Part shown: piece by piece, positions 27,286-59,607 of the stretch
Layout of the letters: each line of letters opens with the position of its first letter
Position numbering within the stretch: the first letter of the stretch is position 1
Origin: a bacterium
Lineage (GTDB): Bacteria > UBA10199 > 2-02-FULL-50-16 > JAJFLM01
Assembly (NCBI GenBank): GCA_965216315.1
Contig: CBDCFN010000015.1
Span: forward strand, 96,001 to 160,000
Direction of reading: 5' to 3'
DNA: 64,000 nt
Made by a program: the position numbers and the translations under genes
Notes under the pieces: generated by a model
The model's database searches: none
The model's input: only the letters and a program-made list of their open reading frames with translations
Told to the model about the DNA's origin: nothing

Positions 27286-29358
27286 ATGGGAATCTACACA
27301 CTCGCAGCACCACTCAGCACGACGACGTTGGCGGCCAGCTCCTTCCAAAACTGGTCACTGCGGCTCTATGGCCGGGCCGTAACCCTCGGGGAGCGGACCC
27401 AGCAACTCGCCCAAGAGACGGGTTTGAGCGACTTTTTGCTCGGCCCGGATGGGAGCCGCCGCCGTGATCTCCTGGCGCGCACCCCCAAACTCAGCTCCCT
27501 CGTTCAAAGCCATGACGGCCTGCGGACCTTTCATCTTCAGGGTCGGCTCTCCGTCTATCCGCAGGTCACCCAACATCCTCATTGGGTCGAGCTGATTACC
27601 CTACTCGCCGGACCGACAAGTGTGGGCCTCGATGGCCACCCTCGTATCCACCGGGAAAGCTTCCAACAATTCCTTCAACATATTCCCCACGTCCTCGCTG
27701 ACGGGGCTGAACTCTTGGACTGGCTGGACGCGCTCGAAAAGGTACTGCCGGAAGCCCTGCGCACGAGCGAGGAAGATGCTCATTCGATGCAACGGGCTAT
27801 TCGTGCCACGCGCACCATGATTAACACGGCTTCGGTGACGGCACCACCGGATATGTGGTTGCTCCGCCAAATACTTTCGACGCATGAAGAACTAGGCCTC
27901 TTGCAGGACTTGAATAGCGGCATGACGATTAACGTCGCCGAGTACGCCGCGCGTAACGAGTTGGATGAACGTCAACTCGGCATCGACCTCGAGTTTCTCT
28001 TCGCGCGCGGTTACCTCGACCGTACCCCTCAAGGCTATGTCAAGACCACCTCAACCGCCTCCTACGTCCTTGAAGAGATCGTGGCCCTCCCGACTCAATA
28101 TCGCACGGACATGACTGGCGAATTGATCAGCTGGTTCAAAGGTGAGACCGGACTGGCCCGGGAAGAGTTGATTGAAGGCTGGCTGGGAAGCCGCATCGCC
28201 AGCCGCACACCAACCGCCGGCTGGACCGCATCGACCCATGAAATAGAGATTGGCTATCGTGTTGTCCCCTTAGTCCTTGCCCTTAATGCTGCAGGTTTAT
28301 TGAAAGGTATCCGGCGCGGTCGCGAGTTTAATCCCCCTCATTTTACTCTTGAGATGAAGCAGCTCTTTGAAGAGGCGGGCATTTTAAGCGAGGGAAAAGT
28401 AACGTCCTTAGGCCTGCGCATGCTCAGGCGTGGTCCCGGCCCTTTCGGCATCATCGGAACCTATCATACCTATACAACCCAACACACACAGCTCCTGCAA
28501 GCGAATGGCCTCAAACCACATGTGCAGCGCGGACCGAATGTCGCTGCCAGTCGCGATGCGAATCGCCGTGACTTTGAAAATGGAGTGCGTCAACTGGAGA
28601 AGTATTTCGAAGCTACAGACTGGCAACCAACGGTCGTGATTGAACATGCCTTGGGTCATGGGGTCGCCATTCAGGAATTCGTCAAACGCTTTGGCGCAGA
28701 CGGCCTCCGTTTCTTCGGTTTTGATTACGAAGCCAAGGCCCTCGATGCCGCCAAGGGTGAGCAAGCAGCAGGCACACTACCCGCTAATATGACTTTCGCC
28801 CCTCCAACCGATATCGCCAAACCCGAACGACTGATCAAATTCCTCAGCCTGTCTTTAAGCGATCGGGATTTATCTGCTTTGAGCGAGGATGAGTTATCCA
28901 CCCTCATGAATGAACCCTTAACTGAGGAAGACTTTGCACGTGTTCAACAAGAACGCATCGTCATGATCGTTGGTGCCGGATTCCATGAAGCACGTTTGGA
29001 TGACGACGCGTTGGTAGAAAAACTCAAACTTTATCGCCAAGCCGGCATCCTGATGATGCCGGTCGAGGCCTCGGCCCTGACGACACCAATGCAGCGGGCC
29101 AGTGCCTGGCAAAGTTACAACGCCGGTTTTACCTGGGTCCATGAAACATCGGGACAGCGCCTCCGCTCTCCTGTGCGCTATACATCTCCCCATCATCGCC
29201 ACAGCTGGCCTGACTTGTTTCAGGCGGCGGGTTACCGCATCGAAGAACATTATTCTCAAGGTACCCGTCCTCTCTTTCCTTACGTCGCACCCAGGCCGGA
29301 GAATCCACCGATCAGTTATACATTCCTGGCTGTTCCCCGAGCGACAAAAGAGATCTAG
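27286..29358 (+). CDS. AprA-related class I SAM methyltransferase-like protein with N-terminal extension
   Basis: Winged-helix-like LEFLFARGYL; HVQRGPNVAAS, VIEHALGHG (degenerate motif I), GFDYE, DIAKP, GFHE. Confidence 0.55.
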   Translation: MGIYTLAAPLSTTTLAASSFQNWSLRLYGRAVTLGERTQQLAQETGLSDFLLGPDGSRRRDLLARTPKLSSLVQSHDGLRTFHLQGRLSVYPQVTQHPHWVELITLLAGPTSVGLDGHPRIHRESFQQFLQHIPHVLADGAELLDWLDALEKVLPEALRTSEEDAHSMQRAIRATRTMINTASVTAPPDMWLLRQILSTHEELGLLQDLNSGMTINVAEYAARNELDERQLGIDLEFLFARGYLDRTPQGYVKTTSTASYVLEEIVALPTQYRTDMTGELISWFKGETGLAREELIEGWLGSRIASRTPTAGWTASTHEIEIGYRVVPLVLALNAAGLLKGIRRGREFNPPHFTLEMKQLFEEAGILSEGKVTSLGLRMLRRGPGPFGIIGTYHTYTTQHTQLLQANGLKPHVQRGPNVAASRDANRRDFENGVRQLEKYFEATDWQPTVVIEHALGHGVAIQEFVKRFGADGLRFFGFDYEAKALDAAKGEQAAGTLPANMTFAPPTDIAKPERLIKFLSLSLSDRDLSALSEDELSTLMNEPLTEEDFARVQQERIVMIVGAGFHEARLDDDALVEKLKLYRQAGILMMPVEASALTTPMQRASAWQSYNAGFTWVHETSGQRLRSPVRYTSPHHRHSWPDLFQAAGYRIEEHYSQGTRPLFPYVAPRPENPPISYTFLAVPRATKEI

Positions 29359-29406
29359 CTGAAAGCCATAATCCCGTATCGTCCGAGACTGGCAAAATGG
29401 CCACGG

Positions 29407-30702
29407 TTAACTTAAGACTTCGAAACGAAATTCGGGTAGCGAGAGGTAATACTCACCCTCCTTGCAGGTAAAACCACCTAAATCATCCCCCGGTAATGCA
29501 ATCCCCCACCACTGGTTGCCATTCGCTTCCGGCCATTGCTTCCGATATCTATCCAGGATACCCAATTTGATATTCGACAAGACCTCATACTGATCTCCAT
29601 ACCAATAGCCTTTCATCTTCATGTAGCGAAAGCGGAAGATATACATGGCCAGTCCTAACCATTGAATCTGTGTCTCCTTATCGCGATCAAGCTTAAACGA
29701 GCGCTTACAAGACATTCCCTTCATCTCGTAATCTGTGTCGATGGTTGAAACCGACACGGCCTGGACTTTTCCATCCAATGTTCTTGCCACAATGAAAAAC
29801 GATTCGTTGTTTATTTTTCGCTCAGGCGTCGCACAGCCGTTAAATTCTTCAAGAAGAACACCTTCCAACATGTACTGCGCCTGTTGATAGGTAACGCGTT
29901 CAATGATGACAGGACAAGCTTGCCCCTGTCTTTTTAAGACAAACTTGAGTGCATGATAATCGAGATGCACATGGGCTCCGAATCGGAGTGCCGCTTCAGG
30001 TGTAATTTCCGGCACGGTAAAGGCATCGGGGTCAACGTACGTACGACCTTCATAGGCAGCAATACGTCTATCAAGCCTTTTTCCGCCAGCGATACAGTCG
30101 TTTACTATCGCACACAGCTCGGTACGTGTCGCCCCTCCATGCATTGCCGCCGTTAATAGATCCAACGGATGAAATTTTGGCAAATTCGCACTACACAGAC
30201 ACGATATAAACTGAAAAACCGAAAGACGATCCGATTGAAAGAGCGTCAACAGCTGATTAATCGTCGGGGCGGCCGTCGGATCCATTAGCATGGATTCCAT
30301 CGCCGGTATGAACCTATTCAATTTCACCCGATGGCCCAGATTGCGGGTCTCGCTCTGAAAAAGTCGCAGCATAGCGAGACTCTGATCACTGGTCAGGATT
30401 TCACGTCTTTCTTGCCCTGATGCCGCGCTCAAAATCCGTAGCACCTGTTGGCCCAGATTATCATCACGCCACAGGGCTTGAACGACGGGTGTTGAAGTCA
30501 GTGCCCGCAGTGACGTCAAACTCTGCAGCGGCTCTTGTTCGAGACCGTGTAGATCTTCCAGAACTTGCTCAACGCGCTCCGCACTTTCGATATGAGTGAC
30601 CTGCGCGGAAAGAGCCTGTTGAAAATGCGCTAGCGAAACAATGGAGGCACTTGCGCACAAACTAGCAGAATTCAAAAATAGGCTGGGGGCGGCACTCAGC
30701 AT
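29407..30702 (-). CDS. Hypothetical protein (possible C-terminal GNAT-like fold)
   Basis: 431-aa ORF with Ser/Ala/Leu leader; FFIVARTLDGKVQAVS ... WLGLAMY. Confidence 0.6.
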   Translation of the reverse strand: MLSAAPSLFLNSASLCASASIVSLAHFQQALSAQVTHIESAERVEQVLEDLHGLEQEPLQSLTSLRALTSTPVVQALWRDDNLGQQVLRILSAASGQERREILTSDQSLAMLRLFQSETRNLGHRVKLNRFIPAMESMLMDPTAAPTINQLLTLFQSDRLSVFQFISCLCSANLPKFHPLDLLTAAMHGGATRTELCAIVNDCIAGGKRLDRRIAAYEGRTYVDPDAFTVPEITPEAALRFGAHVHLDYHALKFVLKRQGQACPVIIERVTYQQAQYMLEGVLLEEFNGCATPERKINNESFFIVARTLDGKVQAVSVSTIDTDYEMKGMSCKRSFKLDRDKETQIQWLGLAMYIFRFRYMKMKGYWYGDQYEVLSNIKLGILDRYRKQWPEANGNQWWGIALPGDDLGGFTCKEGEYYLSLPEFRFEVLS

Positions 30703-30707
30703 GAGTT

Positions 30708-30738
30708 CTTATCCCCTATAGATTTCAAATAGTTGTGA
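30708..30738 (-). promoter_or_regulatory. Degenerate copy of the shared promoter motif
   Basis: TCACAAC-N16-GGGATAAG, ending 5 nt before ATG. Confidence 0.4.
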
Positions 30739-30770
30739 TCTGAGCCTTGCGAGAATTTTCGAAAGCGCGC

Positions 30771-33700
30771 TTAAGCCTTCTCGACACGCTTTCCTTTGCC
30801 GTAGTTGGGATCGATCTTATACTGCTTGATCTTGAGATAAATCGTGCGTCGCGCCACTTGAAGCAGTTCCGCCGCCTTCATTTTATTGCCGTGGCACCTA
30901 TCTAAAGCTGCCATGATCAGGCGCTTTTCGATCGGGGCAATCGCCGCTTCGAGGCTCCCGAGGTGGCTGAAGCTGCGCTCTTGTTGGGCGGCCTCGAGGA
31001 TGTGCGGACTCAGCAATGACGGGCCAACCACATCGGCACCCAAGACCATGAGTCGATGCATCTCATTCTGCAACTCACGAATATTTCCCGGCCAGGGATA
31101 ATCCATTAACGCGCGTATCGCTCCTTTACTAAGCCGAAGCTTACGTTTGCCAGCTTCTTGGGCCGCTTGTTCTAGAAAATGCTCGGCTAGCAATAGGATA
31201 TCTTCACCGCGCTCGCGCAGCGGTGGCACATTGATTTGAACGACATTCAAGCGATAATAAAGATCCTTACGAAACTCCTGCCGGGCCACCATGGCCTTAA
31301 TATCACGGTGCGATGCCGTGATAATCCGCACGTCGACTTTCTGGTAGTCACGCCCACCCACCCGGCGCACCTCGCCTTCCTGCAATACGCGTAATAACTT
31401 CGCCTGCATGCCCAATGACATGTCACCTACTTCATCGAGAAAAAGGGTACCCCGGTGAGCCATCTGGAAGAGACCGATCTTATTATTATCAGCACCGGTA
31501 AAAGCGCCCTTCACATGTCCGAACAACTCGCTTTCCAGCAGGGTTTCGGCAAGGGCGGCACAGTTTTCCGTTATGAACGGCGCAAAATTGCGGGGACCAT
31601 TGTAATGCAAGGCCTGGGCAATCAGTTCCTTTCCGGAACCCGATTCACCGTGAATAAAGACCGGACTATGGGTCTGGGTCACGCGATCCAAGGTCACAAG
31701 AACCTTTTTGAGCGCCGGACTCTTCCCGATGATATTATCATAGCTGTATTTGAGGCGAAGCTCCTCGTGCTCACGCTTCATGCTCTCACGGGCCGCCTCC
31801 AAATGCTGGAGACTTTCGTGTAGATCTTGTTCGAGGCGTGCATTGAGGCTCTCAATCGTTACCTTGGAACGCTCCAGTTCTTCGATCTTCCTTTCGTTAT
31901 CGCGGTGCAGACGCGTGTGCTCAAGAATCAATGATGCTTGATCCGCCAAAGACTCAATCATCTGTAAATGTTCGGACTTCAAGACACCGGGGCGGAAGCG
32001 GTTGTCGAGATAAATCAAGCCCACCGTGCGACGTCCTGTCAGTAACGGCGTGCACAGCACTGAACGAATTTCAAGGGCGTGCACCGACTGAGACTCCGCA
32101 AAACGCTCATCGGTTTGCGCGTCCAAGCTCACAATCGTCTTTCCAGTCCGCATCACTTCCTTGGCAATTGTGCGCGAAATTTCCTCTTCATCGCGATCCA
32201 AATCCTGACTGTCGAAATTACGCGCTGCCCTGATATCCAAATCCTGCCGATCGGACAGAATCACAAAACCACGCTCGGCATCCGTCAGATGAATCGCCGC
32301 ATCTAGGACCTCCTCTAGGAGCTGATCCACATCGTGCATCATTAACAAGCGGCGATTGATATCACTGCTTTCGATAAACGATGTCGCATCCATTGATTGT
32401 GACACGTTTTCCTTTTTTTCCGCTGGACCGAGCGCTGCTAAGGCCTGACGAATCTTTTCCTTTTTGCGATCCCGCATAAAGCTTTGCTGAAATGACTCCG
32501 GCACACTGGCCTTCAATTCATCAATGACTTGGAGGGCCTTGTTGTATGACCTTTTGGCGGCGAGCGTTTTTCCGCTGAGTTGAGCAAGCTCCCCTTCGTC
32601 ACTTAAAATCTGCCACAGATTATTTTTGGCCTGTCGTTCCAGGGCATCTTTTTTAAGCGCGGCCAACCATGCCGCAACGGGATAATCGGCATACTTCTCC
32701 TGCGCAATTCGGAATTTGGCCTCGAACCAATTGGCCTGTAATTCATAGGACTCCTGCCCGGTACTCGTGACATAATCGCGCAAAATCCCTAATACCTCCT
32801 CGCACGTATTGAGATCCTTTAGTTCCAGCGCGCGATACCCTTTAGCGAGTTGAGCCTGAAACATCGCCTGCGATTCACCCAGGTCTTTAGCAAAAGTGAG
32901 AGCTTGTTCAATATACTTGGCAACACGTTCCTCATTGCCCTTGCCCTGCTCTCCAACTGTCAACAAGAAGAGATTATAGGCGATCAGTGATTGGAGTCCG
33001 TGTTCCTGCGATAAGGCGAGGGATTCTTCGAGCGCTTCCTCCGCCTGACTGAGGCGACCAAAGTAAAAATAAAGATTGCCCAAATTACTCAGAATCGAAG
33101 CCAACGAACTCGGATTATCTAAGGCACGCGCCAGTTCAAGAGCCTGGATAAAGAGCTCATACGCACGGTCCCAACGGCCTTGTTCCTGCTGCAGCGTCGC
33201 CGCATTGATCAGAAGACTTAATTGATGATCTTGCCGTTCGCTTTCTGCCGCATAGGCCGCAGCCTTTTCAAAACTGGCCGCCGCTTCGACCGGCTTACTA
33301 AGCGCCTGCAAGACGAGAGCACGGTAATTTTCAAAACGCGTGCGCTGGACGAGCGTCGCTTGTTCTATCTCGTTGGCTGGAACAGATTCAATATTTTGAG
33401 TCGCCGTATCTAAGGCCCCTTCACGATAGGCTAATTGCACGGCAAGTATTACGTGTTCAAATGAGCGTTCACCACCTAAGGCGGGATGAGCCGCCATTTC
33501 AGCAAGAAAGGCATGGGCTTCGGGATATCGCCCCTGCTCGATCAAGACGTGACCCATCGCCGCATAAAACGCTTCGACGACGCCTTGCTCCGTTTCCGTT
33601 TTAAAGCGCGAGAGCTGCGATTCAGCAAACCGCTGGGCTTCATGACGATCTCCACTCCGTACCAGCGCCAATAACTCATCGACGACTTCCTGAGCGCTCT

Positions 33701-34634
33701 GCTTGCCTTGGGCACGGCTGCGAACACGTTGCTTTTTCGGGGCGCGTGTTTTTGAAACTGAACTCACCGCCTTTTCAGCACTCAGGGCAAAATTTTCTCT
33801 TTCTTCTGCATTGAGAAGTTCGATAATGGCTCGTGCCTTCGCGAGGCGCCGCTTTGGGTCCTTTTCGACCAGGCGTTCAATAATTTTGATAATTCCAACC
33901 GGAACTTCATCGCTGGCGCGCAGGGGAGTAAGGTCGATGTCCTGCTGACGCAGGGCCTCAAGATACATCGCAAAGCTTTGCCCGCGTTTGACGGGCAACC
34001 GCCCTAAGGCCATTTCATAGAGCACAACTCCAAACGAATAAAGATCCGCACGCTGATCATAGTCTTGCTGTGCCAATACTTCCGGCGCCATATAGGCCAA
34101 TGTACCGGCCGTCTCTTTAACCTGATCCTTATTTTTCGCGGCAACAGCCAAGCCGAAATCGATGATCTTCAAACGAAGTCGTTCGAGCGTTTGAGACGCA
34201 TCCGCATCATGGACCATGCCAACGAGCATATTGTCGGGCTTGAGATCGCGATGAATGATTTTGTTAGTGTGTAAATAATCAAGGGCCCAACAGGCCTGGA
34301 CGATCAATTGAAAGACCGCGTTCCAATCTTTTTTTTGGCATGCACTGACAAAGTCCTCTCCCTCGACATACTCCGAGGTATAGTAGAGTTCTTTACCATC
34401 ATTAGAATAATCAAGGAGCCGCGCTAAATGCGGGTGCGAAAGTTTTTTAAGAAGCGCGCATTCCGACTTAAAGGCCTTGACGAGAGTCGGTGTGGCCTTG
34501 GCGCCAAGCAAGCGTTTGAGGACCTTGAGTTGATGACCTTCTTCTCTATCCCGCACGAGATAAGTCGTACCGCCTGCACCGGACCCGAGTTCCCGCTCGA
34601 TCTCATAACATCCTGCTAATACAGCCGATTTCAC
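30771..34634 (-). CDS. Ser/Thr kinase-TPR-GAF-sigma54 enhancer-binding protein with Fis HTH
   Basis: HRDLKPDN, DFG, GTLAYMAPE; TPRs; GAF; GESGSGKE, GAFTGA, FLDEVG, WPGNIRELQN; GNKMKAAELL. Confidence 0.93.
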   Translation of the reverse strand: MKSAVLAGCYEIERELGSGAGGTTYLVRDREEGHQLKVLKRLLGAKATPTLVKAFKSECALLKKLSHPHLARLLDYSNDGKELYYTSEYVEGEDFVSACQKKDWNAVFQLIVQACWALDYLHTNKIIHRDLKPDNMLVGMVHDADASQTLERLRLKIIDFGLAVAAKNKDQVKETAGTLAYMAPEVLAQQDYDQRADLYSFGVVLYEMALGRLPVKRGQSFAMYLEALRQQDIDLTPLRASDEVPVGIIKIIERLVEKDPKRRLAKARAIIELLNAEERENFALSAEKAVSSVSKTRAPKKQRVRSRAQGKQSAQEVVDELLALVRSGDRHEAQRFAESQLSRFKTETEQGVVEAFYAAMGHVLIEQGRYPEAHAFLAEMAAHPALGGERSFEHVILAVQLAYREGALDTATQNIESVPANEIEQATLVQRTRFENYRALVLQALSKPVEAAASFEKAAAYAAESERQDHQLSLLINAATLQQEQGRWDRAYELFIQALELARALDNPSSLASILSNLGNLYFYFGRLSQAEEALEESLALSQEHGLQSLIAYNLFLLTVGEQGKGNEERVAKYIEQALTFAKDLGESQAMFQAQLAKGYRALELKDLNTCEEVLGILRDYVTSTGQESYELQANWFEAKFRIAQEKYADYPVAAWLAALKKDALERQAKNNLWQILSDEGELAQLSGKTLAAKRSYNKALQVIDELKASVPESFQQSFMRDRKKEKIRQALAALGPAEKKENVSQSMDATSFIESSDINRRLLMMHDVDQLLEEVLDAAIHLTDAERGFVILSDRQDLDIRAARNFDSQDLDRDEEEISRTIAKEVMRTGKTIVSLDAQTDERFAESQSVHALEIRSVLCTPLLTGRRTVGLIYLDNRFRPGVLKSEHLQMIESLADQASLILEHTRLHRDNERKIEELERSKVTIESLNARLEQDLHESLQHLEAARESMKREHEELRLKYSYDNIIGKSPALKKVLVTLDRVTQTHSPVFIHGESGSGKELIAQALHYNGPRNFAPFITENCAALAETLLESELFGHVKGAFTGADNNKIGLFQMAHRGTLFLDEVGDMSLGMQAKLLRVLQEGEVRRVGGRDYQKVDVRIITASHRDIKAMVARQEFRKDLYYRLNVVQINVPPLRERGEDILLLAEHFLEQAAQEAGKRKLRLSKGAIRALMDYPWPGNIRELQNEMHRLMVLGADVVGPSLLSPHILEAAQQERSFSHLGSLEAAIAPIEKRLIMAALDRCHGNKMKAAELLQVARRTIYLKIKQYKIDPNYGKGKRVEKA

Positions 34635-34682
34635 GTATTTGAGGATAGCACGGCAGAGGGCTAGTGTATATATTATATACAG

Positions 34683-35372
34683 CTATTGCCTGACAAAACT
34701 AAAGGTGCCGACCGGAACAAGTTCTCCATTCACTACAAACAAGGCATCATCAAAGAGCTTAATCACTTCGGCAGGATCCGTATCCTGATTCGCTGCCGTA
34801 AAAGTCGCGCCGCTGTCAGTTCCTGCATCGTAGACAAAAAGTTCGACTTCTACGGTTTCAATCCAAGTGCCGTCCTCACATAAAGAAAGATCTCGAACGC
34901 CAACAAACCAGTCCGGACTGGGCGCCAGCATAGAAACGAGACTGACAAGCGGGTGATTTGGGCTGATCTCAAAGCTCAGATTCACTGACCCCGGCGACGG
35001 GTTGATCCCTCCACCCGAGAGGGTGGTCCCCGCATTTCCAGAACTGATCAAAGCGCTAATCTCATCGTCCAAAGGACTCTTACTGCCCATTTCAGCCATG
35101 TTTTCGATACCATCGGTAGCCAATTCACCACTGGCCCATAGGGTCACTGCGCTATCGTGAGTCGCGCCGATTAGCCCTGAAAAATGAGGATTCGACGGCA
35201 AGACGTCGTGCGTTTGCTCGCTCCACGTCGCCGTAAATGTCACTTGATAAGTTGCTGTTCCGGTGCAGTCTATCTCACTGGCATCGTTAGAATTGGGTGC
35301 ATTTGTCGTGCAAGCAGAGACGACGGCAAGGCACATGCCCAATGCAAGCAAGAGCTGAATCTTTGCGGACAT
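34683..35372 (-). CDS. Spondin_N domain lipoprotein
   Basis: Lipobox VSAC; YQVTFTATWS, HFSGLIGATH, SMLAPSPDWFVG, YDAGTDSG. Confidence 0.9.
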   Translation of the reverse strand: MSAKIQLLLALGMCLAVVSACTTNAPNSNDASEIDCTGTATYQVTFTATWSEQTHDVLPSNPHFSGLIGATHDSAVTLWASGELATDGIENMAEMGSKSPLDDEISALISSGNAGTTLSGGGINPSPGSVNLSFEISPNHPLVSLVSMLAPSPDWFVGVRDLSLCEDGTWIETVEVELFVYDAGTDSGATFTAANQDTDPAEVIKLFDDALFVVNGELVPVGTFSFVRQ

Positions 35373-37490: not shown

Positions 37491-38681
37491 TCAAGTTTCG
37501 GAGAGACGCTTATTTCGTTGATGATGGCGATCTAACAGGCAATCCGCCGCGACACGCATCGCAGGCCAGGCGGGCAACGCCCGAACGATCATCCTCGTTG
37601 TATCGATGACATAATCCCCATCGACCTGAACGGGAATTGCAAAAGGCTGCCCTTTTTCATCTGAAAAGAAAATTTCCATGGACTGTCCCTGTAGCAATTG
37701 TAGCTGCAACTCCGCCTCAAGTCTTTCAATGCGATCATCAGGGCCAATTTGCATGGACTTGCCTTTCAAAGCCGCTTTCCCCTTGCCCTGCACCTCACGA
37801 AAAATTTTATACATTTGCCATATTGACCCTAGCGGATAGCCCTTGACCCCAAGACCCTGTATCGGTGTCCCCGGAAAGGCATTGCTGCCATCCGCTAAAG
37901 GCGTGCCATGAAAAAAAACCTCGCGCGATACAAACTGATGATCACCATATTGGCTATGCTTCCAATTGACATGAAAAGGGCGAGACAACACGACATTTTT
38001 TCCACCGATCATTTTGCGCTTGATATGCACCCACTTGCCGTGCCCCGTTCGCGTCGATTTGAACATAGCCGCGATGGTCGTCCCCGCACCCGCATTATGG
38101 GAAAAGATAATCGGTTCATTGATGCCATCCAGTTCAAGCCAACCAAGATTTAATGGCACCGTCGTATGAGAGCGCAGGTAATCAATGCAATCGGATTCAT
38201 TGGCACCGGGCGCCCCTGCCATAACGCTGAGGTCATTGGCACTCCCTAAACGAATCACGCCGACGCGGAGTCCACTGGCCGCCATTCGAGCCGCTACTTC
38301 GTCCGCCGACTGTTGAATCATATCTTGTTGGTTTGGAAAAATGTAGAGCAAGAGGCCACGGACTACTTCGTTCATCGTGCCATCTCCACCAAAGGCGATC
38401 ACATCCAAAGGTGTATCGGGACGGAAGGTCTTAAATTGACGAACAGCCGCCGCAACCAAACGAACCGTCTCGAAGGGATCTTCCACGGTCCTCACGGGCG
38501 GGAGCATCCTGAATTCTTGCTGCAAGGCCCGATCGGCCTCCATGACATTCGTGACATTCTCGGCAATAGTTGGGGCATTGCCGCTCCCGGCGACCGGATT
38601 CACAACGGGCAAAATATAATGAGGAGCCGCCGCCAAAACAGGCGCCAGCGAAGCTGCTGAAAGGGACCCTAAGACCACCAT
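37491..38681 (-). CDS. Diacylglycerol/lipid kinase family protein with N-terminal leader
   Basis: VNPVAGSG, GGDGTMNEVVRGL, GSANDL, QVDGD. Confidence 0.8.
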   Translation of the reverse strand: MVVLGSLSAASLAPVLAAAPHYILPVVNPVAGSGNAPTIAENVTNVMEADRALQQEFRMLPPVRTVEDPFETVRLVAAAVRQFKTFRPDTPLDVIAFGGDGTMNEVVRGLLLYIFPNQQDMIQQSADEVAARMAASGLRVGVIRLGSANDLSVMAGAPGANESDCIDYLRSHTTVPLNLGWLELDGINEPIIFSHNAGAGTTIAAMFKSTRTGHGKWVHIKRKMIGGKNVVLSRPFHVNWKHSQYGDHQFVSREVFFHGTPLADGSNAFPGTPIQGLGVKGYPLGSIWQMYKIFREVQGKGKAALKGKSMQIGPDDRIERLEAELQLQLLQGQSMEIFFSDEKGQPFAIPVQVDGDYVIDTTRMIVRALPAWPAMRVAADCLLDRHHQRNKRLSET

Positions 38682-51991: not shown

Positions 51992-51994
51992 GGG

Positions 51995-52744: not shown

Positions 52745-52762
52745 AATAATCTCCTTTAATGG

Positions 52763-52784
52763 CCCCTTCCTTACCAAGGAGGGA
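52763..52784. repeat. Short palindrome related to the prmC insert core
   Basis: CCCCTTCCTT-ACC-AAGGAGGGA. Confidence 0.5.
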
Positions 52785-52791
52785 ATCGTAC

Positions 52792-52820
52792 TTGCAACCA
52801 CTAATCCCCTTGATTAGAGT
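52792..52820 (+). promoter_or_regulatory. Sigma70-like promoter, probably leaderless proA transcript
   Basis: TTGCAA-N17-TAGAGT, 6 nt before ATG. Confidence 0.5.
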
Positions 52821-52826
52821 AGGTCT

Positions 52827-54086
52827 ATGAGCCTCGAAGAACAAATCGAATCCATCGCACGTCATGCCCGCGAGGCCGCGGGGGCAGTCGCTCACCTTTC
52901 TGAGGAGAAAAAAAATGTCCTGTTGCGGGCCATGGCCGACCGGCTGCTCGAACGTAAGGCGGACATCCAGGCGGCCAATGCCCGCGATGTCGAAGCCGGG
53001 GAGGCCTCAGGCAAACTAAATAAAGCAGCGATCGACCGCCTCATCCTTAATGAAGCCCGGATCCAGGACATGGCCAACGGTTTACGCGAGGTTGCTGAGC
53101 TGCCCGATCCGGTCGGCCTGCGCGTCAAAGAATACACCCGACCCAACGGCCTCAAGATAGAAAAAATCAGGATTCCCCTGGGCGTCATCGGCATGATTTA
53201 TGAATCACGCCCGAATGTCACCGTCGATGCCGCCGGACTCTGTCTCAAATCCGGCAATGCCATCGTACTGCGCGGGGGTTCTGAGGCCATCCATTCCAAC
53301 ACTTTGCTGGGAGACATCCTTCGAGAAGTCTGTGAAGCACACGACATCGATCCCAACATTATTCAGGTCATCCCCACGACCGAGCGGGAGGCCATGAAGA
53401 TACTCGTCAATCAAACCCGATATATTGATTTAATGATTCCACGTGGCGGCGAGGCCCTGATGAAATGGATGGCCGAACATTCGAAAATTCCCGTCATCAA
53501 ACACGATAAAGGGGTTTGTCATCTTTACGTCGACAAAGAAGCGGATATCGAAATGGCCGTTAACATCGCCTATAATTCCAAGGTTCAGCGGCCCGGCGTC
53601 TGCAATGCGCTGGAAACAGTGCTCGTTCATCGCGATATTGCGGGATCATTTCTTCCCGCCCTAGCGAAACGGTATCTAAGTGCCTCGGTCGAAATACGCG
53701 GGGATGAGCGCGTCTGTCAGTTGATTCCGGAAGCCACGGCCGCAACGCCTGAAGACTGGGATGCTGAGTATCTTGATTTAATCATTTCCATTCGTGTCAT
53801 CAAAGATATGGACGAAGCCATGCAGCATATCGAACGGCATGGCTCTCTACACACGGAATCAATCGTGACCAATAACGCCACTACGGCGGAACGCTTTCTT
53901 CGAGAAGTCGATTCTTCGATGGTTGCCTGGAATGCCTCGACGCGCTTTAATGACGGGGGGCAGCTCGGCCTCGGCGCCGAAATCGGCATCAGCACGACAA
54001 AAACGCATGCTTTCGGTCCCATGGGCCTTGAAGAACTCACCACAACAAAATACGTTGTAACTGGAACGGGGCAGATAAGAGAGTGA
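52827..54086 (+). CDS. proA: Gamma-glutamyl phosphate reductase
   Basis: IYESRPNVT, LRGGSEA, CNALET, NASTRF, EIGIST. Confidence 0.97.
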   Translation: MSLEEQIESIARHAREAAGAVAHLSEEKKNVLLRAMADRLLERKADIQAANARDVEAGEASGKLNKAAIDRLILNEARIQDMANGLREVAELPDPVGLRVKEYTRPNGLKIEKIRIPLGVIGMIYESRPNVTVDAAGLCLKSGNAIVLRGGSEAIHSNTLLGDILREVCEAHDIDPNIIQVIPTTEREAMKILVNQTRYIDLMIPRGGEALMKWMAEHSKIPVIKHDKGVCHLYVDKEADIEMAVNIAYNSKVQRPGVCNALETVLVHRDIAGSFLPALAKRYLSASVEIRGDERVCQLIPEATAATPEDWDAEYLDLIISIRVIKDMDEAMQHIERHGSLHTESIVTNNATTAERFLREVDSSMVAWNASTRFNDGGQLGLGAEIGISTTKTHAFGPMGLEELTTTKYVVTGTGQIRE

Positions 54087-54448
54087 ATTCGGAAGAGCTC
54101 GCAAAAGAGATTCTGGCTGCTGCTCAAGATGTCAAAGCCGAGGACCCGGTGGTCCTCGATCTGCGCACACTCACAAGTTTTACCGATTTTTTCGTCATCG
54201 TCAGTGGACGTTCCGACCGGCAGGTCCAGGCGATTGCCGACCGCGTTACCGAGGACCTGAGAGAAAAGAAAATCAAACCCATGGGCATTGAAGGCTATGA
54301 TAGCGGCCATTGGGTCCTCATCGATTATGGTGCCGTCGTACTCCATGTATTTTACGGTGAAACACGTGAATTCTATTTACTTGAACAACTCTGGAGTGAT
54401 GCCCCCCGGCTAGAGGTCAATAGTGATGATCAAAAGGCGGCACCGTGA
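54083..54448 (+). CDS. rsfS: Ribosome silencing factor
   Basis: DVKAED, DFFVIVSG, WVLIDYG, YLLEQLW. Confidence 0.93.
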   Translation: MNSEELAKEILAAAQDVKAEDPVVLDLRTLTSFTDFFVIVSGRSDRQVQAIADRVTEDLREKKIKPMGIEGYDSGHWVLIDYGAVVLHVFYGETREFYLLEQLWSDAPRLEVNSDDQKAAP

Positions 54449-56001
54449 AACCAACACTGCTAATCATTCTGGATGGGTGGGGTGAACGAGCGGAACATGA
54501 GCATAACTCGATTCATCTCGCTACGACAAATCACTATGACCGTTTTCTCCACAACTACCCACATACAACGGTACTAACGCATGGAACCGCCGTTGGCTTG
54601 ACGGAAGGGGTCATGGGCAACTCCGAAGTCGGCCACATGAACATCGGTGCCGGCCGCATTGTCATGCAGACATTGAGCCGCATTTCTCAAGCCATCGACA
54701 ACGGTGCTTTTTTTGAGAACGAAGCCTTGCACACGGCGATGCAGGCCTGCATCGAACATAATAGCACGCTTCACCTGATGGGACTCCTGTCCGATGCGGG
54801 CGTTCATAGCGACATCTCGCATCTCGTTGCACTTCTGCGCATGGCCGCCAATAACAAAATTTCCAACGTATGCATTCACCCCTTTATGGACGGCCGTGAT
54901 ACCAACCCACGACGTGGGGTTGAGTACCTCCACCGTCTTCAGGATACACTGAACTCACTTCAAATAGGCAGGATCGCAACGGTCTCAGGTCGTTATTACT
55001 CGATGGATCGGGATAAACGGTGGGATCGAACTGAACGGGCCTATCAGGCCTTAGTCCTGGGTAAGGGCGCAAGAAGTGAAAATGATGCCGCCACCATTGT
55101 CAACGACTGGTATCATCAGAGTAACCCCCAACCCGGCTTTGGGGATGAATTCGTCCCACCAACCGTGCTTATTGACCCTGCCACAAAACAACCTATTGGC
55201 CTCATCGAAGAAAATGACGTCGTGATCCATTTCAACTTTCGCCCGGATCGCGCGCGCCAACTGACACAGGCACTAAGCGATCCCGATTTTTCCGAGTTTG
55301 AACGACAGTCTTTTCCAGTTCTCAGTAACTTCACTTGCATGGCACCGTATAGCGAAAATTTCGATCTACCCATCGCCTTTAGAAAAGAAAAACTTGCGCG
55401 CATTATGGGCGAGATTATTGCAGAGCAAGGCATGGCTCAATTTCGCTGTGCAGAAACCGAAAAGTATGCGCACGTTACGTATTTCTTTAACGGAGGGGTC
55501 GAGCAGGTCTTTCCTGGTGAAGAACGCAAACTCGTTCCTTCCAATCGCGAAATCGCCACCTACGATTTAGCCCCGGAAATGAGGGCGCGTGAAGTAACAG
55601 CAGAGGTCCTCAATGCCCTTAATACAAACAAGTTTGGGTTTTATGTGATCAATTTCGCCAATCCGGACATGGTCGGTCACACAGGGAAAGAACCGGCGGC
55701 GATTCAAGCAGTTGAAGCCCTAGATGATTGCCTGGGACAGATCGTCGATCAGGTGCTTCAACAAGACGGCATTGTGATTATTACGGCGGACCACGGCAAT
55801 TGCGAAGAAATGATCGACGCGCATGGCCATCCCCATACTCAGCACACGCTAAACCCCGTGCCTTGCATTATCATCGGCAATAGCGTTAAAGAGCTTAAAT
55901 TGAAACCGGGACGACTCTGCGATATAGCCCCGACGTTATTGGAGTTAATGGGGATTGAACAGCCCCCGGAAATGACCGGGGAGTCATTAATTATTCATTA
56001 G
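54445..56001 (+). CDS. gpmI: 2,3-bisphosphoglycerate-independent phosphoglycerate mutase
   Basis: ILDGWG, MGNSEVGH, DGRD, ETEKYAHVT, DMVGH, ADHGN. Confidence 0.97.
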   Translation: MKPTLLIILDGWGERAEHEHNSIHLATTNHYDRFLHNYPHTTVLTHGTAVGLTEGVMGNSEVGHMNIGAGRIVMQTLSRISQAIDNGAFFENEALHTAMQACIEHNSTLHLMGLLSDAGVHSDISHLVALLRMAANNKISNVCIHPFMDGRDTNPRRGVEYLHRLQDTLNSLQIGRIATVSGRYYSMDRDKRWDRTERAYQALVLGKGARSENDAATIVNDWYHQSNPQPGFGDEFVPPTVLIDPATKQPIGLIEENDVVIHFNFRPDRARQLTQALSDPDFSEFERQSFPVLSNFTCMAPYSENFDLPIAFRKEKLARIMGEIIAEQGMAQFRCAETEKYAHVTYFFNGGVEQVFPGEERKLVPSNREIATYDLAPEMRAREVTAEVLNALNTNKFGFYVINFANPDMVGHTGKEPAAIQAVEALDDCLGQIVDQVLQQDGIVIITADHGNCEEMIDAHGHPHTQHTLNPVPCIIIGNSVKELKLKPGRLCDIAPTLLELMGIEQPPEMTGESLIIH

Positions 56002-56015
56002 TAGGGGAGCGTAAC

Positions 56016-56501
56016 ATGCCATCTTTCGACATTGTCAGCGAATTAGATCGCCAAGAACTCAAAAACGCCGTCGACCAAGTCATCCGCGAAGTCAAACAAC
56101 GCTATGACTTCAAGGGCAGCAAATCAGAGATCAAGGAAGAGAATGACAACCTGACCTTTATTTCTGACGACGACTTTAAAATGAAGGCCTTGATCGACAT
56201 CTTCCAATCCAAGGCCGTCAAACGTGGCCTCGACCTCAAAGCCTTTGATTATGGAAAAATAGAACCTGCTGCAGGCGATACCGTACGTTGTTCGGTGAAA
56301 GTCGTCGAAGGTATCGAAAAAGAAAAGGCTAAAGATCTGGTCAAAAAGATCAAGGACATGAAACTCAAAGTTCAGGCTGCCATTCAAGAGAACCAAGTCC
56401 GCGTGACCGGAAAAAAACGCGACGATTTGCAGGACGTCATCGCCGCCGTCAAAGGCTTGGACTTTGCTATTCCGTTGCAGTTTGAAAATTTCCGGGACTA
56501 G
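56016..56501 (+). CDS. yajQ: YajQ family nucleotide-binding protein
   Basis: MPSFDIVS, RYDFKG, RVTGKKRDDLQ, NFRD. Confidence 0.95.
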   Translation: MPSFDIVSELDRQELKNAVDQVIREVKQRYDFKGSKSEIKEENDNLTFISDDDFKMKALIDIFQSKAVKRGLDLKAFDYGKIEPAAGDTVRCSVKVVEGIEKEKAKDLVKKIKDMKLKVQAAIQENQVRVTGKKRDDLQDVIAAVKGLDFAIPLQFENFRD

Positions 56502-57316
56502 CTATCGCGAGGTCTCGATGACGGTGGCTTACTCCGCCGCAGCAACTGGTTACTTAGTTGATAAAGGTGAAAACTAAGTTTGCGGTGGAGCCCGAGCTGC
56601 ATTACTTGCTCGGCTAAGGCGAGGGAATGACTCAAGAGGCGCTCGATATGCTCAGGCTTGAGGTGACCGCTGGCCGCTCTCAGGGCTTGGCTCACTAATT
56701 TCAAATCATCAAAGTCTTCATAGGCCAGCGTCTGGCGAGCCTCATCGTCATCAATTTCCTCATTTTCTTCATCATGCTCTGCGTGGATCAGCAATATCGC
56801 TAAATCAACTTGCTCTTTAGCAAACTCGAGAGCACGAACTTCATCATTCAACTGAGAGGCATAGTGGCTCGCACGGCCCAAAAGGTCATACTTCTCGAGA
56901 CCGGCCTCCATGCCCATCAAGGCCTCCTGGAGCAGTATAAGTGCCTCCGTCTCAATAAGTTCAGCGAGTAGAGCATCGGCGAGTAACGGCGTGTATTTGA
57001 AGCCGGTCGGATCGTCTTCGCTGGGCGGGACCGAGGGGCTTTTACTTAAGCCGGCTGTCATCCGGTCATGAAATAATTGAATACGGTCCAAGCCACTCAC
57101 GGGTCGACCCATCCTTACGGCGTAGAGCATGCAGAAATCCCTGAGGGGAGCGACCAACATGCCGGCAATTAACTGCCGGCCATCGGTCACCGAGTCATCG
57201 ACGATGCCGGCTTCCCGCGCTGCTTGGTACAAATTATTGACTAACGAGGGCTTGGGAGAACCCGCCGCAAGCAAACAAGCGGACTGACTAGAGATGCTGA
57301 CGCCAAGCAGATTCAT
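56498..57316 (-). CDS. Hypothetical helical protein, paralog of the adjacent 57332-58570 gene
   Basis: Shared leader and N-terminal domain (FHDRMTAGL vs FHERVTKGL). Confidence 0.7.
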   Translation of the reverse strand: MNLLGVSISSQSACLLAAGSPKPSLVNNLYQAAREAGIVDDSVTDGRQLIAGMLVAPLRDFCMLYAVRMGRPVSGLDRIQLFHDRMTAGLSKSPSVPPSEDDPTGFKYTPLLADALLAELIETEALILLQEALMGMEAGLEKYDLLGRASHYASQLNDEVRALEFAKEQVDLAILLIHAEHDEENEEIDDDEARQTLAYEDFDDLKLVSQALRAASGHLKPEHIERLLSHSLALAEQVMQLGLHRKLSFHLYQLSNQLLRRSKPPSSRPRDS

Positions 57317-57331
57317 TGTAATGACCCCGAT

Positions 57332-58570
57332 TTAGTCTCGCTCCGAGGGACCTTTGACAGGCCGGGTGGGGCGGCTGTCCTCACCGTCTTCTAGTTCGCC
57401 CTCTAGTTGTTGACGCATTTTATCCTCATGACGCCCGGCCCATATATGTAGACGTTCGGCCACATCTCCTTCAAACTTGTGTTCCGTAATCTGTTTTAAT
57501 AGCGCTAATGACTGCTCATCAACCGGCAGCCGATGCAATACAGCAAACATTTGTCTGAAAAAACCACCCGCCCACTCATGTTCACCCCCTTGAGCCAAGG
57601 TCCGTCCGGCGATCCAGAGATATTCGAAGCGGCGTGCGACATCCTCACGATCGATATGGCCAATAATGCGCTTGATATTATCGTAATGGGCATGAGCCTT
57701 ATCTTCTTCGCCTTGACTCAATTGCCGCAAGACCGATTCGGCTTCTTCGCCGATGACATCAACCAGCTTCGGCATGATTTTCCGTAGCGGCTCTTCCACG
57801 TTACTTGGCAACAACTCCTGAACCAGTTGTTGTTTGAGATGTTCGAGAGATGTTTTTTCGTGTTCCTGGGCCACACCGCTTAAGTCTGATTCCTTTAAAG
57901 TGCGCTGTGCATATTCGATTAAGTCGAGACGTTCTTGTATATTAAAAAAACTCAGGTCTTCGATCACCATGCGAAGTTGATTAAACGCGACGACATATAC
58001 TGTGCTGTCTTCCCCCCTATTGGCAATCTTTTGCCAATCCGCATCCACCTTCAACATTGTAAATGCAATTAATGACTTTGCTAGAGAGATAGCGTGAATT
58101 CTTTTACCCATTGTCACTGCATCAAGGATATCCTGAATCCTTAGGCGGCGTTCAACAGCATAATCGGTAAGATCCGTTACCTTAGGACCATCATCATGGG
58201 CTCCAAAAACTTTCAACGAGACAGCAAGAGAATCGCTGCCTAGCTCTTCTAACAATAAATTGGCGAGATAAAGGCAATAAATGCTTCTATTAGAGCTATC
58301 AACCAACTCGCCAAGCTCACCTATCTGATCGGCATCGAGGCCCTTAGTGACACGTTCATGAAACACAGAGAGGCTACTGGTTTTGCCGCAGACATCATTG
58401 ATCTGATTGGCGAGCAACAGTGCCAATAGCGAACGCGGTCCTTCATGTTTATAGACAGTCCCTCGCTCTTCATGGTGAAGAACGAGAAAATTACTCCAGA
58501 GTCTTGGAGTCTTACTGCTGGCGAGGATCGCCGTCGTCGCCAACGATGACGCATTCATCAATATATGCAT
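57332..58570 (-). CDS. Hypothetical helical protein
   Basis: 412-aa ORF, Ser/Ala/Leu leader, shared promoter motif upstream. Confidence 0.7.
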   Translation of the reverse strand: MHILMNASSLATTAILASSKTPRLWSNFLVLHHEERGTVYKHEGPRSLLALLLANQINDVCGKTSSLSVFHERVTKGLDADQIGELGELVDSSNRSIYCLYLANLLLEELGSDSLAVSLKVFGAHDDGPKVTDLTDYAVERRLRIQDILDAVTMGKRIHAISLAKSLIAFTMLKVDADWQKIANRGEDSTVYVVAFNQLRMVIEDLSFFNIQERLDLIEYAQRTLKESDLSGVAQEHEKTSLEHLKQQLVQELLPSNVEEPLRKIMPKLVDVIGEEAESVLRQLSQGEEDKAHAHYDNIKRIIGHIDREDVARRFEYLWIAGRTLAQGGEHEWAGGFFRQMFAVLHRLPVDEQSLALLKQITEHKFEGDVAERLHIWAGRHEDKMRQQLEGELEDGEDSRPTRPVKGPSERD

Positions 58571-58576
58571 GGCCGA

Positions 58577-58606
58577 CTTATCGCCTACCGCAGGCGCTTG
58601 TTGTGA
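58577..58606 (-). promoter_or_regulatory. Shared alternative-sigma-like promoter motif (58570 operon)
   Basis: TCACAACAAG-CGCCTGCGGTAG-GCGATAAG, 6 nt before ATG. Confidence 0.55.
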
Positions 58607-58616
58607 CGCGTAAGGA

Positions 58617-58644
58617 TTATCTGTTTACTGGAGTCAACAGATAA
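58617..58644. promoter_or_regulatory. Operator-like palindrome between divergent orphan genes
   Basis: TTATCTGTTTAC-TGGA-GTCAACAGATAA (11/12 arm match); third half-site CAACAGATA at 58658-58666. Confidence 0.5.
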
Positions 58645-58655
58645 CGAACTGCATA

Positions 58656-58683
58656 GACAACAGATATTTCTAAAAGTCGAAAA
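58656..58683 (+). promoter_or_regulatory. Shared alternative-sigma-like promoter motif (58693 gene)
   Basis: GACAACAGA-TATTTCTAAAAG-TCGAAAA. Confidence 0.5.
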
Positions 58684-58692
58684 GGTCCCGAT

Positions 58693-59607
58693 ATGTACAG
58701 CTCTCTCGCAGTAATAAATAGCGCGGCGCTAAGCGGGTCGCTGGTCCTCGCGTCGGGGAGTTACCCTCCGGCCCCCGAAACCCCTCATTCCAATTCGAGT
58801 CCCGTCGATGTCTTTGCCACAACGTTTCCCGGCCACGCGCTGGGGCCCTTCACTACTACCGTACGTTATCCACAGCTCCGCGAGGATATGCCCGTGTTGG
58901 AGCCTGAGGGTGGAGAAAGCGCTTTAATCGCACTGGGTCTCTTCGCCGAAGTCGGTGCTTGTTTCTATTTTGCATCGAATGGAACATTGCTTTCTCCATT
59001 ATTAGCTGTTTCCTTAACCGCTTTTGCCGCAACTGTGTTTGTTGGAAGCCGTGTGTTAGGAAAACTAGTTGAACGCTATCTAGACCATATCCGCTCCGAC
59101 CAAGATCCACAGAGTCAAGAGTTTCAACAGGTGGAGTCAAGATTAGCGGGGCTCTATCCCGAAACAGAACGTTATCTCAGAATCGGCCCCGGCGTTAAAG
59201 AAAGTGATCGAACTCATTATAAGAAGTGGCGGCAGGATATTTCTGAGGCCATCCTACAGCTCAAACATATTCGCCAACGAGACCCGATGCGCATCCTTAA
59301 ATGGCTACCTCCCGGCTGGGCCATTCGATTCTTCTTATATTTAGATAACAGCCGTGAGGCTCCTATTTATAAACATGAACTAATGACGCAAGTCATCGAG
59401 GCCCATGAGAATAGACTCGCACAAATTCCGCTTGAACTCTCAGACTTCTACAGCGCCTTCCGGGGCCGCGTTCACTCTCGTCTCCACTTTGGTGACCTTA
59501 TCCCGGATAGCCAAGAGAAATTAGAAGCAGAAGCGGAACTCGCTGAAGCTGAATTGGCGGGAATAGAAGCGGACGATCGGAAGGCAATCTACGACCCAGA
59601 CGACTAG
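58693..59607 (+). CDS. Hypothetical membrane protein (two hydrophobic helices)
   Basis: 304-aa ORF, Ser/Ala/Leu leader, Pro-rich linker, hydrophobic hairpin around aa 77-122. Confidence 0.65.
   Translation: MYSSLAVINSAALSGSLVLASGSYPPAPETPHSNSSPVDVFATTFPGHALGPFTTTVRYPQLREDMPVLEPEGGESALIALGLFAEVGACFYFASNGTLLSPLLAVSLTAFAATVFVGSRVLGKLVERYLDHIRSDQDPQSQEFQQVESRLAGLYPETERYLRIGPGVKESDRTHYKKWRQDISEAILQLKHIRQRDPMRILKWLPPGWAIRFFLYLDNSREAPIYKHELMTQVIEAHENRLAQIPLELSDFYSAFRGRVHSRLHFGDLIPDSQEKLEAEAELAEAELAGIEADDRKAIYDPDD

Follow-up and report, generated by a model that had tools for sequence, protein, structure and literature searches.

Sigma-28 (FliA) promoters drive the flagellar class 3 genes, i.e., the late substrates of the flagellar export apparatus, and Stavrinides, Ma and Guttman reportedly described in 2006 a terminal reassortment of type III effectors. 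For Pseudomonas syringae effectors, the accessible text of PMC3338616 gives rules for the N-terminus, namely no acidic residues, a high serine content and an aliphatic amino acid, or a proline, in position 3 or 4. In Myxococcus xanthus, the needle-less T3SS* acts with a Kil Tad-like pilus in predation, its effectors being only postulated in the part of the source available (PMC12075869), and in Chlamydia a metabolic enzyme such as phosphoglucomutase CT295 has acquired a type III signal, with secretion shown experimentally according to the accessible portion of PMC9251005. The present analysis concerns six proteins encoded in a 64,000-nucleotide stretch of DNA (the window, contig C15:96001-160000) from a bacterial genome of the phylum UBA10199 (2.96 Mb, 16 contigs, 98.3% complete), each of which begins with an uncharged leader of about 20 residues, and the genome-wide class of proteins to which these six belong.

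The leader is best put as a putative signal, a lineage-specific, motif-bearing variant of the type III-style N-terminal signal. In the reading preferred here, which is given a probability of roughly 0.5, it would be the lineage-specific recognition signal of a needle-less type III system, its bearers being co-expressed from largely leaderless promoters through the FliA-like sigma factor of that system. A preliminary description of the window had assigned the six proteins to one dedicated export pathway; the common class, the grafting onto different cargoes, the link to a promoter, the distinction from Sec, Tat and lipobox signals and the presence of a type III system all stood, while export itself is only inferred. 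The combined rule of promoter and leader motif names about 90 candidate substrates in one genome of an unstudied phylum and thus provides a testable list. The effectors of the Myxococcus T3SS* are, as noted, only postulated, and the evolutionary step from flagellum to injectisome is no less obscure. The leader would be a portable 20-residue tag for reporter fusions, and its pairing with apparently leaderless transcription is unusual. If the tag is not an export signal, there would instead be a conserved N-terminal tag, without any known function, on about 3.5% of the proteome, acquired enzymes included.

Comparison with described systems

The closest analogue of the system in its working would be the HrpL regulon and the Hop export patterns; flagellar class 3 control is a further one. 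To judge from the accessible text of PMC3338616, it shares with HrpL and Hop a sigma factor of the alternative kind whose gene accompanies the type III genes, a single promoter box before scattered (effector) genes, N-termini that lack acidic residues and in part also show a high serine content and an aliphatic residue in position 3 or 4, and the joint listing of cargo by promoter and N-terminus. It differs in that the sigma factor is FliA/WhiG-like and not of the extracytoplasmic function (ECF) type, the transcripts are probably leaderless, the leader is Leu-rich, carries a discrete motif at a fixed distance and is free of basic residues too, needle, pilus and secretin are missing from the machine, and nine of 89 cargo proteins have Sec-type signals. 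Like T3SS* of Myxococcus, a related, formerly "deltaproteobacterial" lineage, the machine has a sorting platform and an inner-membrane export apparatus without secretin, needle or translocon. The available part of PMC12075869 gives neither cargo nor signal nor promoter code for T3SS*, whereas there is a candidate cargo list for the present system. As with Chlamydia CT295 in the accessible portion of PMC9251005, a housekeeping-type enzyme (here glutamate dehydrogenase, GdhA) gains an N-terminal signal in some lineages and has orthologues without it, but Chlamydia has a complete injectisome, whereas here there is a shared leader motif known from sequence alone.

Flagellar class 3 genes have in common with the present ones the -10 box GCCGATAA, a FliA-like sigma factor, FliG-, FliM- and FliO-like genes and, probably, the coupling of substrate expression to the machine. 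In contrast, the upstream box here is CAAC(TTT), there is no flagellin, rod or hook, and the putative substrates are enzymes and orphan proteins rather than filament parts. The resemblance to terminal reassortment lies in a promoter and an N-terminal signal that stand as a module before new cargo; the leaders are, however, no recent DNA copies of each other, and only the pattern is common.

The leader class

Gene calls were crude, i.e., the longest open reading frames (ORFs; 2,472 in the genome), and the tests covered every ATG with at least 100 open codons behind it (17,699 in all). Under the definition of the preliminary description (no Lys, Arg, Asp or Glu in 19 residues, at least 60% Ser, Ala, Leu or Thr), leaders were found at 60 of the 225 promoter-linked ATGs and at 110 of the 17,474 others (odds ratio 57, Fisher p 7e-72), well beyond chance. 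A regular expression for the motif gave 44/225 promoter-linked against 69/17,474 other ATGs (odds ratio 61, p 1e-54). At a threshold of at least 15, a position matrix gave 53/225 promoter-linked ATGs, 38/3,565 other first ATGs and 20/13,909 internal ATGs (0.14%), the promoter-linked figure being partly circular, as the matrix was trained on 41 promoter-linked cases. Among the matrix matches, a TauE membrane protein and the DUF4215 and DUF6454 proteins, which have ordinary signal peptides, are false positives. An expectation-maximisation motif search on 56 N-termini was diffuse, and the anchored expression and the position matrix were used instead.

The matrix threshold is reached by 94 ORFs, 89 of them at least 200 residues long and all six window proteins included, and the class comprises about 90 ORFs (about 3.5% of the crude gene calls), so that six leaders are an undercount. 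The counts argue strongly that the leaders are one class, real and non-random. Its shape is a run of 13-20 uncharged residues rich in Ser, Thr, Leu and Ala, followed by [LVI]-L-A-[SA]-[STAG]. When 63 high-scoring leaders are aligned on the motif, residues 2-3 are often hydrophobic, the middle is rich in Ser and Thr, a Leu occurs about five residues ahead of the motif, [AST][ST][PTAS] occupies positions 3 to 1 ahead of it, a Pro-rich linker lies behind it, and the motif mostly starts at residue 13-17. Both codon families of Ser (AGY, TCN) and of Leu (CTN, TTR) and all four Ala codons occur within the motif, with third positions like those of the genome; with synonymous codons this free, selection acts on the amino acids and not on the RNA. 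Second codon positions within the leader are 80% pyrimidine. Open-access and bioRxiv literature held nothing on the leader or on type III secretion in UBA10199, the latter judged by title and abstract.

That the leader is grafted onto different cargoes was borne out: after removal of the first 35 residues, 74 of the 94 proteins have no paralogue within the set. An orthologue (P0003, 39% identical) of the diacylglycerol kinase (DAGK)-type protein of the window reads ...LSPTLLAASS ahead of the first strand. Two relatives of the leader-bearing GdhA, both of 470 residues, have different leaders and the same motif (...TATTPLLANS in P0010, 67% identical, and ...NSALLASS in genome G025), and orthologues of the phosphofructokinase (PFK)-type protein that are 51-52% identical read ...NSTFLLAST in G025 and ...PSIVAAST in genome G024. 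In these three orthologue groups the motif is kept while the remainder of the leader changes. Canonical NADP-dependent GdhA from many phyla (446-454 residues, 61-65% identical) starts where the leader ends and lacks the first 22 or so residues, and GdhA of two genomes from the same phylum (G085 and G086) has the canonical start and no promoter. The leader on GdhA is thus an addition to the canonical enzyme.

The alternative that the true starts lie downstream of the leaders is contradicted by the -10 boxes, which leave no room for another start, and independent gene calls in other assemblies (P0003, P0010) give the same start. In an AlphaFold2 model of the DAGK-type protein, built from a six-sequence alignment (mean predicted local distance difference test score, pLDDT, 81; predicted template modelling score 0.83), residues 1-16 have pLDDT below 50 and no secondary structure precedes the strand at 21-27. 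In this one modelled protein the leader is predicted to be disordered and outside the folded domain.

The shared promoter

The pattern CAAC-N16-CGA[AT]A has 206 matches in the genome, against 52-88 at each of the spacings 10-15 and 17-21, and 77 sites with a close downstream ATG give the consensus CGCAACTTTT-N10-GCCGATAAG. The promoter of the regulon is written here as CAAC-N16-CGATAA, with CAAC(TTT) as the upstream box. Its -10 half, GCCGATAA, is the sigma-28 (FliA) box; the upstream half differs from that of FliA. There are 141 strong sites (matrix score at least 14) with an ATG opening at least 100 codons within 45 nucleotides, and in 83 of these the ATG lies 5-11 nucleotides past GCCGATAA (mode 6-7). 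Because the -10 box is so near the ATG, and assuming the usual distance to the transcription start, most of these transcripts are probably leaderless or have only a few 5' bases. Shine-Dalgarno words upstream (39/106 against 639/1,654) were uninformative.

About half of the tagged ORFs have a sigma-28-type promoter. Of the 40 without one nearby, 13 sit -3 to 183 nucleotides behind a tagged neighbour, in some cases with the stop overlapping the start, and the tag is therefore no by-product of leaderless translation. A charged residue occurs within the first 15 in 27 of 101 promoter-adjacent (leaderless-type) ATGs. A top-scoring promoter lies 11 nucleotides from the ATG of a gene for 717 residues directly behind FliR, and the first 40 residues of that protein are uncharged.

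The type III cluster and its sigma factor

The preliminary description had proposed a search of the genome for secretion systems. It revealed a type III system, whereas markers of type IV or type VI secretion, phage sheaths or encapsulins were not detected (phage sheath, TssC, VirB4 and encapsulin families were searched for in the genome). FlhA/SctV is encoded by one gene (C16:339,083-341,218), which heads a cluster running to about 360,514:

C16:339083-360514 (loci L002 and L003): type III cluster with two FHA/YscD-type and three TPR proteins, SctJ, a sigma factor, FliG-like protein, FliH/SctL, ATPase, YscO/FliJ, FliM-like protein, FliN, FliO and FliP/Q/R

The cluster is a mosaic of flagellar traits (FliG-, FliM- and FliO-like genes) and injectisome traits (a SctJ-type lipoprotein ring, a YscO-like protein and YscD-type FHA proteins). 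FlhB is encoded apart from it (C16:805026-806048, locus L158), beside a PEGA-domain Ser/Thr kinase and an FHA-GGDEF protein; both types of domain, FHA and PEGA, are present again within the main cluster. Flagellin (PF00669) and rod/hook proteins (PF00460) are absent from the genome at its 98.3% completeness. The cluster contains no secretin, the sole large secretin of the genome sitting in a type II cluster (GspC-D-E-F), and scans of the cluster matched no needle family, short needle proteins being easily missed. On these family assignments, the only specialised export machine found in the genome appears to be a needle-less type III system.

The FliA-like sigma gene lies in the middle of the cluster. 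Its product is the best match of the genome to FliA/WhiG (TIGR02479, 133 bits, below the curated cut-off of 189.6), and the next matches reach 108 and 67 bits (ORFs of 591 and 292 residues). We infer that this sigma factor reads the sigma-28-type promoters. A TPR protein of the cluster with weak LcrH/SycD, SctY and CdsG matches was considered as a family-specific receptor and rejected; it is conserved at 50-72% in 28 of 45 related loci and is therefore not specific to the motif-bearing family. An ORF of 119 residues before the sigma gene has no match in the 45 related loci.

Distribution in the phylum

Among 93 species genomes of UBA10199, the promoter pattern is enriched in all 93 (90 matches against 2 for the reversed control in the present genome), and FlhA is found in 91, the two misses being 96% and 60% complete. 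With FlhA in 91/93, the phyletic co-occurrence of leader and machine is uninformative. The more complete of the two, G016, has no FHIPEP match and yet 53 promoter matches against 0 in the control; either the assembly has a gap there, or the machine was lost from this lineage and the regulon persisted. The leader was sampled in promoter-adjacent ORFs of at least 150 residues. No Lys, Arg, Asp or Glu occurs in the first 20 residues of 6/11 such ORFs from two other genomes of the same family, against 1/23 from seven genomes of other families. In those other families the first ten residues are uncharged in 7/23 against 258/2,229 (p 0.013), in a small sample with a background borrowed from the present genome. 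By these comparisons the machine and the promoter are old, and the LLAASS-type motif is a family-level elaboration.

The leader and known N-terminal signals

The claim that the leader lacks the basic n-region of Sec signals holds, with 0.02 Lys or Arg in the first ten residues against 1.84 in the signal-peptide-like N-termini of the genome. The median of the best 9-residue hydropathy is 1.66 for leaders and 2.84 for signal-peptide-like N-termini, the latter having been selected at a value of at least 2.3. On hydropathy and charge, the leader appears not to be Sec-like. None of the 63 aligned leaders has Cys at the end of the motif, which is Ser, Ala, Gly or Thr, unlike in a lipobox, and a Tat-type signal is likewise absent (Arg at residues 2-25 is 0.09-fold of background and there is no twin arginine).

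The P. syringae rules were applied as well. Acidic residues are absent from the first 12 positions in 88/89 tagged proteins against 696/1,654 in the background, which is partly so by construction, the set having been chosen as uncharged. More than 10% Ser in the first 50 residues is found in 58/89 against 236/1,654, and in four of the six window proteins, and an aliphatic residue or Pro at position 3 or 4 in 67/89 against 978/1,654, a weak difference. All three rules together hold for 43/89 against 69/1,654, again partly by construction.

Cargo of the leaders

No Pfam family is found in 55 of the 89 tagged proteins, and for one of them no relative turned up, which is what secreted proteins that evolve fast would be expected to show. 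The metabolic cargo includes DAGK_cat, PFK-type, GdhA and malic-enzyme-type proteins, a GT28 glycosyltransferase, an acyltransferase and an aromatic amino acid lyase, as well as a class V aminotransferase adjoining a cysteine-dioxygenase-type protein. A leader-bearing, 2,588-residue single-chain acetyl-CoA carboxylase with an ACC_central region and a C-terminal biotin-protein ligase (C16:1632121-1641882, locus L142) adjoins a leader-bearing AMP-binding enzyme with a strong promoter. Signalling cargo comprises two protein kinases of about 980 residues, a 1,461-residue cyclase-STAND protein and a hybrid histidine kinase; repeat and lectin cargo comprises proteins with pentapeptide and HEAT repeats as well as six Laminin_G_3 proteins encoded in tandem.

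There is a second, divergent genomic copy of each of four enzymes, namely GdhA, the malic-enzyme type, the aminotransferase and the carboxylase. GdhA occurs in six of the 93 phylum genomes. The PFK type (C15:166462-167832, locus L114) occurs in four of 93 at E 1e-20, including all three of the family, and the phylum may mostly be without such an enzyme. The tagged enzymes are accessory rather than core.

In the six tandem Laminin_G_3 paralogues (C16:444170-456124, locus L127) an uncharged leader is followed by a linker of 25-60 residues and a lipoprotein-type signal with lipobox Cys, and then by an acidic Gly/Asp-rich spacer, the lectin domain and a conserved two-Cys C-terminus. In most of the six, no other start codon precedes the lipoprotein signal, and none has a promoter next to the ATG. 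Several other tagged proteins, including 58693-59607 of the window, have one or two hydrophobic segments at residues 70-150, a layout that we take to resemble that of membrane-inserted effectors.

Proposed function and alternatives

If the FliA-like sigma factor of the cluster reads the promoters, the tagged proteins would be made when the machine is built, as are the flagellar late genes and the HrpL regulon. The tag would be recognised on the cytoplasmic face of the machine, at the export gate, the sorting platform or a general chaperone; the tagged protein would dock there, and most cargo would be exported unfolded through the inner membrane. Cofactor-dependent cargo (GdhA, PFK, acetyl-CoA carboxylase, kinases) would be sensible only within another cell. 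In the most far-reaching version, which is regarded as unlikely, the leader would serve an ancestral type III machine without a needle as an address code, and about 90 proteins would be delivered into another cell, complete metabolic enzymes among them (NADP glutamate dehydrogenase, lipid kinases, acyltransferases, phosphofructokinase and a giant acetyl-CoA carboxylase joined to a biotin ligase of its own). In that version, leaderless mRNAs from the machine's own sigma factor would couple translation and export at the gate, and for this class of type III system both the cargo list and the sequence-defined signal would be the first.

Several observations weigh against recognition by the type III machine. 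The LLAASS-type motif is confined to a single family, whereas the machine is found across the phylum; a conserved core part therefore cannot by itself be the receptor. No outer-membrane route is evident, the one large secretin being that of the type II cluster. Small acidic ORFs, candidates for dedicated adjacent chaperones, lie beside 2/87 tagged genes against 93/1,654, i.e., without excess. Leu is enriched 1.8-fold in the leaders, whereas classical type III signals are not known to be Leu-enriched, and an amphipathic helix was rejected, as the hydrophobic moment at 100 degrees is 0.103 against 0.121 in shuffles (z -2.2) with no periodicity. Whole cofactor-dependent enzymes as cargo are a complication for export, and the PFK and HAL homologues are the only copies in the genome. 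Further, nine of the 89 proteins have a Sec- or lipoprotein-type signal 23-150 residues in (basic residues and a hydrophobic run, with a lipobox Cys in seven, five of which are Laminin_G_3 paralogues). Internal signals of this kind occur in 9/89 tagged proteins against 241/1,654 in the background, a comparison blurred by over-extended ORFs, in which an ordinary signal peptide takes on the appearance of an internal one. Five of the seven lipobox cases have no ATG, GTG or TTG within the 28 codons before the hydrophobic run, and the protein therefore begins at the leader, with leader, linker and lipoprotein signal in succession. A type III export signal by itself leaves this layout unexplained; it would be accounted for by a tag for docking in the cytoplasm or by a route in two steps.

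A cytoplasmic docking, regulatory or turnover tag would act through a cytoplasmic factor (a scaffold-only sorting platform, a protease adaptor or a holding chaperone) that localises, times or removes the proteins of the regulon without a type III channel. This explanation is tentative and has a modest chance of being correct. It would suit the intact cofactor-dependent enzymes and large signalling proteins of the cargo (the hybrid histidine kinase, the 1,461-residue STAND cyclase, the 2,588-residue carboxylase), and also the nine proteins with Sec or lipoprotein signals of their own, in which the leader would stay cytoplasmic before cleavage. The motif, sharp and short and set at a constant distance from residue 1, resembles a site for peptide binding, and it is family-specific although the export core is conserved. 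On the other hand, no candidate adaptor was found; the six ConA-like lectin (Laminin_G_3) proteins with paired C-terminal cysteines, the 55 family-less proteins and those with hydrophobic pairs look extracytoplasmic, and we know of no precedent for a degron on about 3.5% of genes, lineage-specific acquired enzymes included. Another export route, either Sec, signal recognition particle (SRP) and YidC substrates without a basic n-region or an undescribed translocase, possibly handing on to type II secretion, is decidedly improbable. The end of the motif (A-S-S, A-G-S) fits the pattern of small residues at -3 and -1 for signal peptidase, or a lipobox with Ser for Cys, and the genome has a complete GspC-D-E-F cluster; the hydrophobicity of the leaders is nevertheless far under that of the genome's own signal peptides, which have basic n-regions, and the leaders lack Cys and twin arginine.

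Two further explanations would deny the leader any signal function. As a by-product of leaderless translation, uncharged codons would result from an RNA or ribosome constraint after a 5'-terminal AUG, for which the short distance from -10 box to ATG in 83/141 strong promoters and the pyrimidine content of the second codon positions could be cited. Synonymous codons are free, however, with Ser encoded by AGY and TCN alike, the leader also stands on operon-internal genes with overlapping stop and start, the motif at residues 13-19 is kept in orthologues with otherwise different leaders, and more than a quarter of promoter-adjacent ATGs (27/101) have a charge within the first 15 residues; this explanation is largely refuted and very improbable. 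A chance likeness of low-complexity N-termini, or wrong starts, might be suspected from the simple composition and the crude longest-ORF gene calls, but it is refuted by p values of 1e-54 to 7e-72, by the rarity of the pattern at internal ATGs (0.14%), by the start shared with the independent gene calls and by -10 boxes that leave no room for another.

Leader genes of the window

The six leader genes of the window and their control regions are as follows:

27286..29358, plus strand: 690-residue leader protein (MGIYTLAAPLSTTTLAASS...), leader score 24.7, promoter score 18.6

27236..27264 (approximate), plus strand: sigma-28-type promoter of 27286-29358, GCAAC...N15...CCGAAAT, -10 box about 21 nucleotides from the ATG, read from the upstream sequence

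29407..30702, minus strand: 431-residue leader protein (MLSAAPSLFLNSASLCASAS...), leader score 16.1

37491..38681, minus strand: 396-residue DAGK_cat lipid-kinase-type protein with leader (MVVLGSLSAASLAPVLAAAP...), PF00781, E 8.6e-12

56498..57316, minus strand: 272-residue leader protein (MNLLGVSISSQSACLLAAGS...), operon-internal and without its own promoter, beginning 16 nucleotides past the stop of 57332-58570

57332..58570, minus strand: 412-residue leader protein (MHILMNASSLATTAILASS...), promoter CACAAC-N16-GGCGATAA, 7 nucleotides to the ATG, score 19.0

58571..58692, no strand: divergent control region of 122 nucleotides with one sigma-28-type promoter per strand, read from the sequence

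58693..59607, plus strand: 304-residue leader protein (MYSSLAVINSAALSGSLVLASGS...), promoter score 13.8, two adjacent hydrophobic segments at about residues 76-118

All six N-termini listed in the preliminary description are encoded exactly as written there, and residues 1-19 are free of Lys, Arg, Asp and Glu in 6/6, as it had stated. Each start codon is the first ATG, GTG or TTG downstream of an in-frame stop 6-96 nucleotides before. A two-box element, CAAC-N15/16-[CG]CGA[AT]A, precedes five of the six ORFs, with the -10 box ending 6-21 nucleotides from the ATG; the position-weight-matrix scores of the promoters at starts 27286, 30702, 38681, 57316, 58570 and 58693 are 18.6, 6.1, 12.7, none, 19.0 and 13.8. 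The sixth gene lies inside the unit of 57332-58570, so that the placing of all six in units with the shared promoter was accurate. Among the six, a Pfam family (DAGK_cat) is found in 37491-38681 alone, a search of Pfam and NCBIfam giving no family for the other five.

The cargo of 27286-29358 resembles AprA-type methyltransferases, a lead only, drawn from language-model look-alikes (score 0.94). The weak promoter of 29407-30702 (CACAAC-N16-GGGATAA, score 6.1) lies 6-8 nucleotides from the ATG, and the protein has two paralogues elsewhere in the genome. In the DAGK-type protein the leader abuts the first strand of the fold. For the 412-residue protein, a word-index search among 5.8 billion clustered proteins, limited to near lengths, returned only the protein itself.

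The region 58571-58692 has back-to-back promoters and three copies of a TTATCTGTTG-type word, one of them inverted, and this repeated word may be an operator. Directly upstream of the leader gene 29407-30702, the minus-strand ORF 30771-34634 encodes a 1,287-residue fusion protein that joins a Ser/Thr protein kinase to TPR repeats, a GAF domain, an AAA+ domain of the sigma-54 activator type and a Fis-type helix-turn-helix. The minus-strand ORF 34683-35372 encodes a protein of 229 residues in which a Spondin_N domain was recognised (E 4e-47), a type known chiefly from extracellular matrix proteins of animals.

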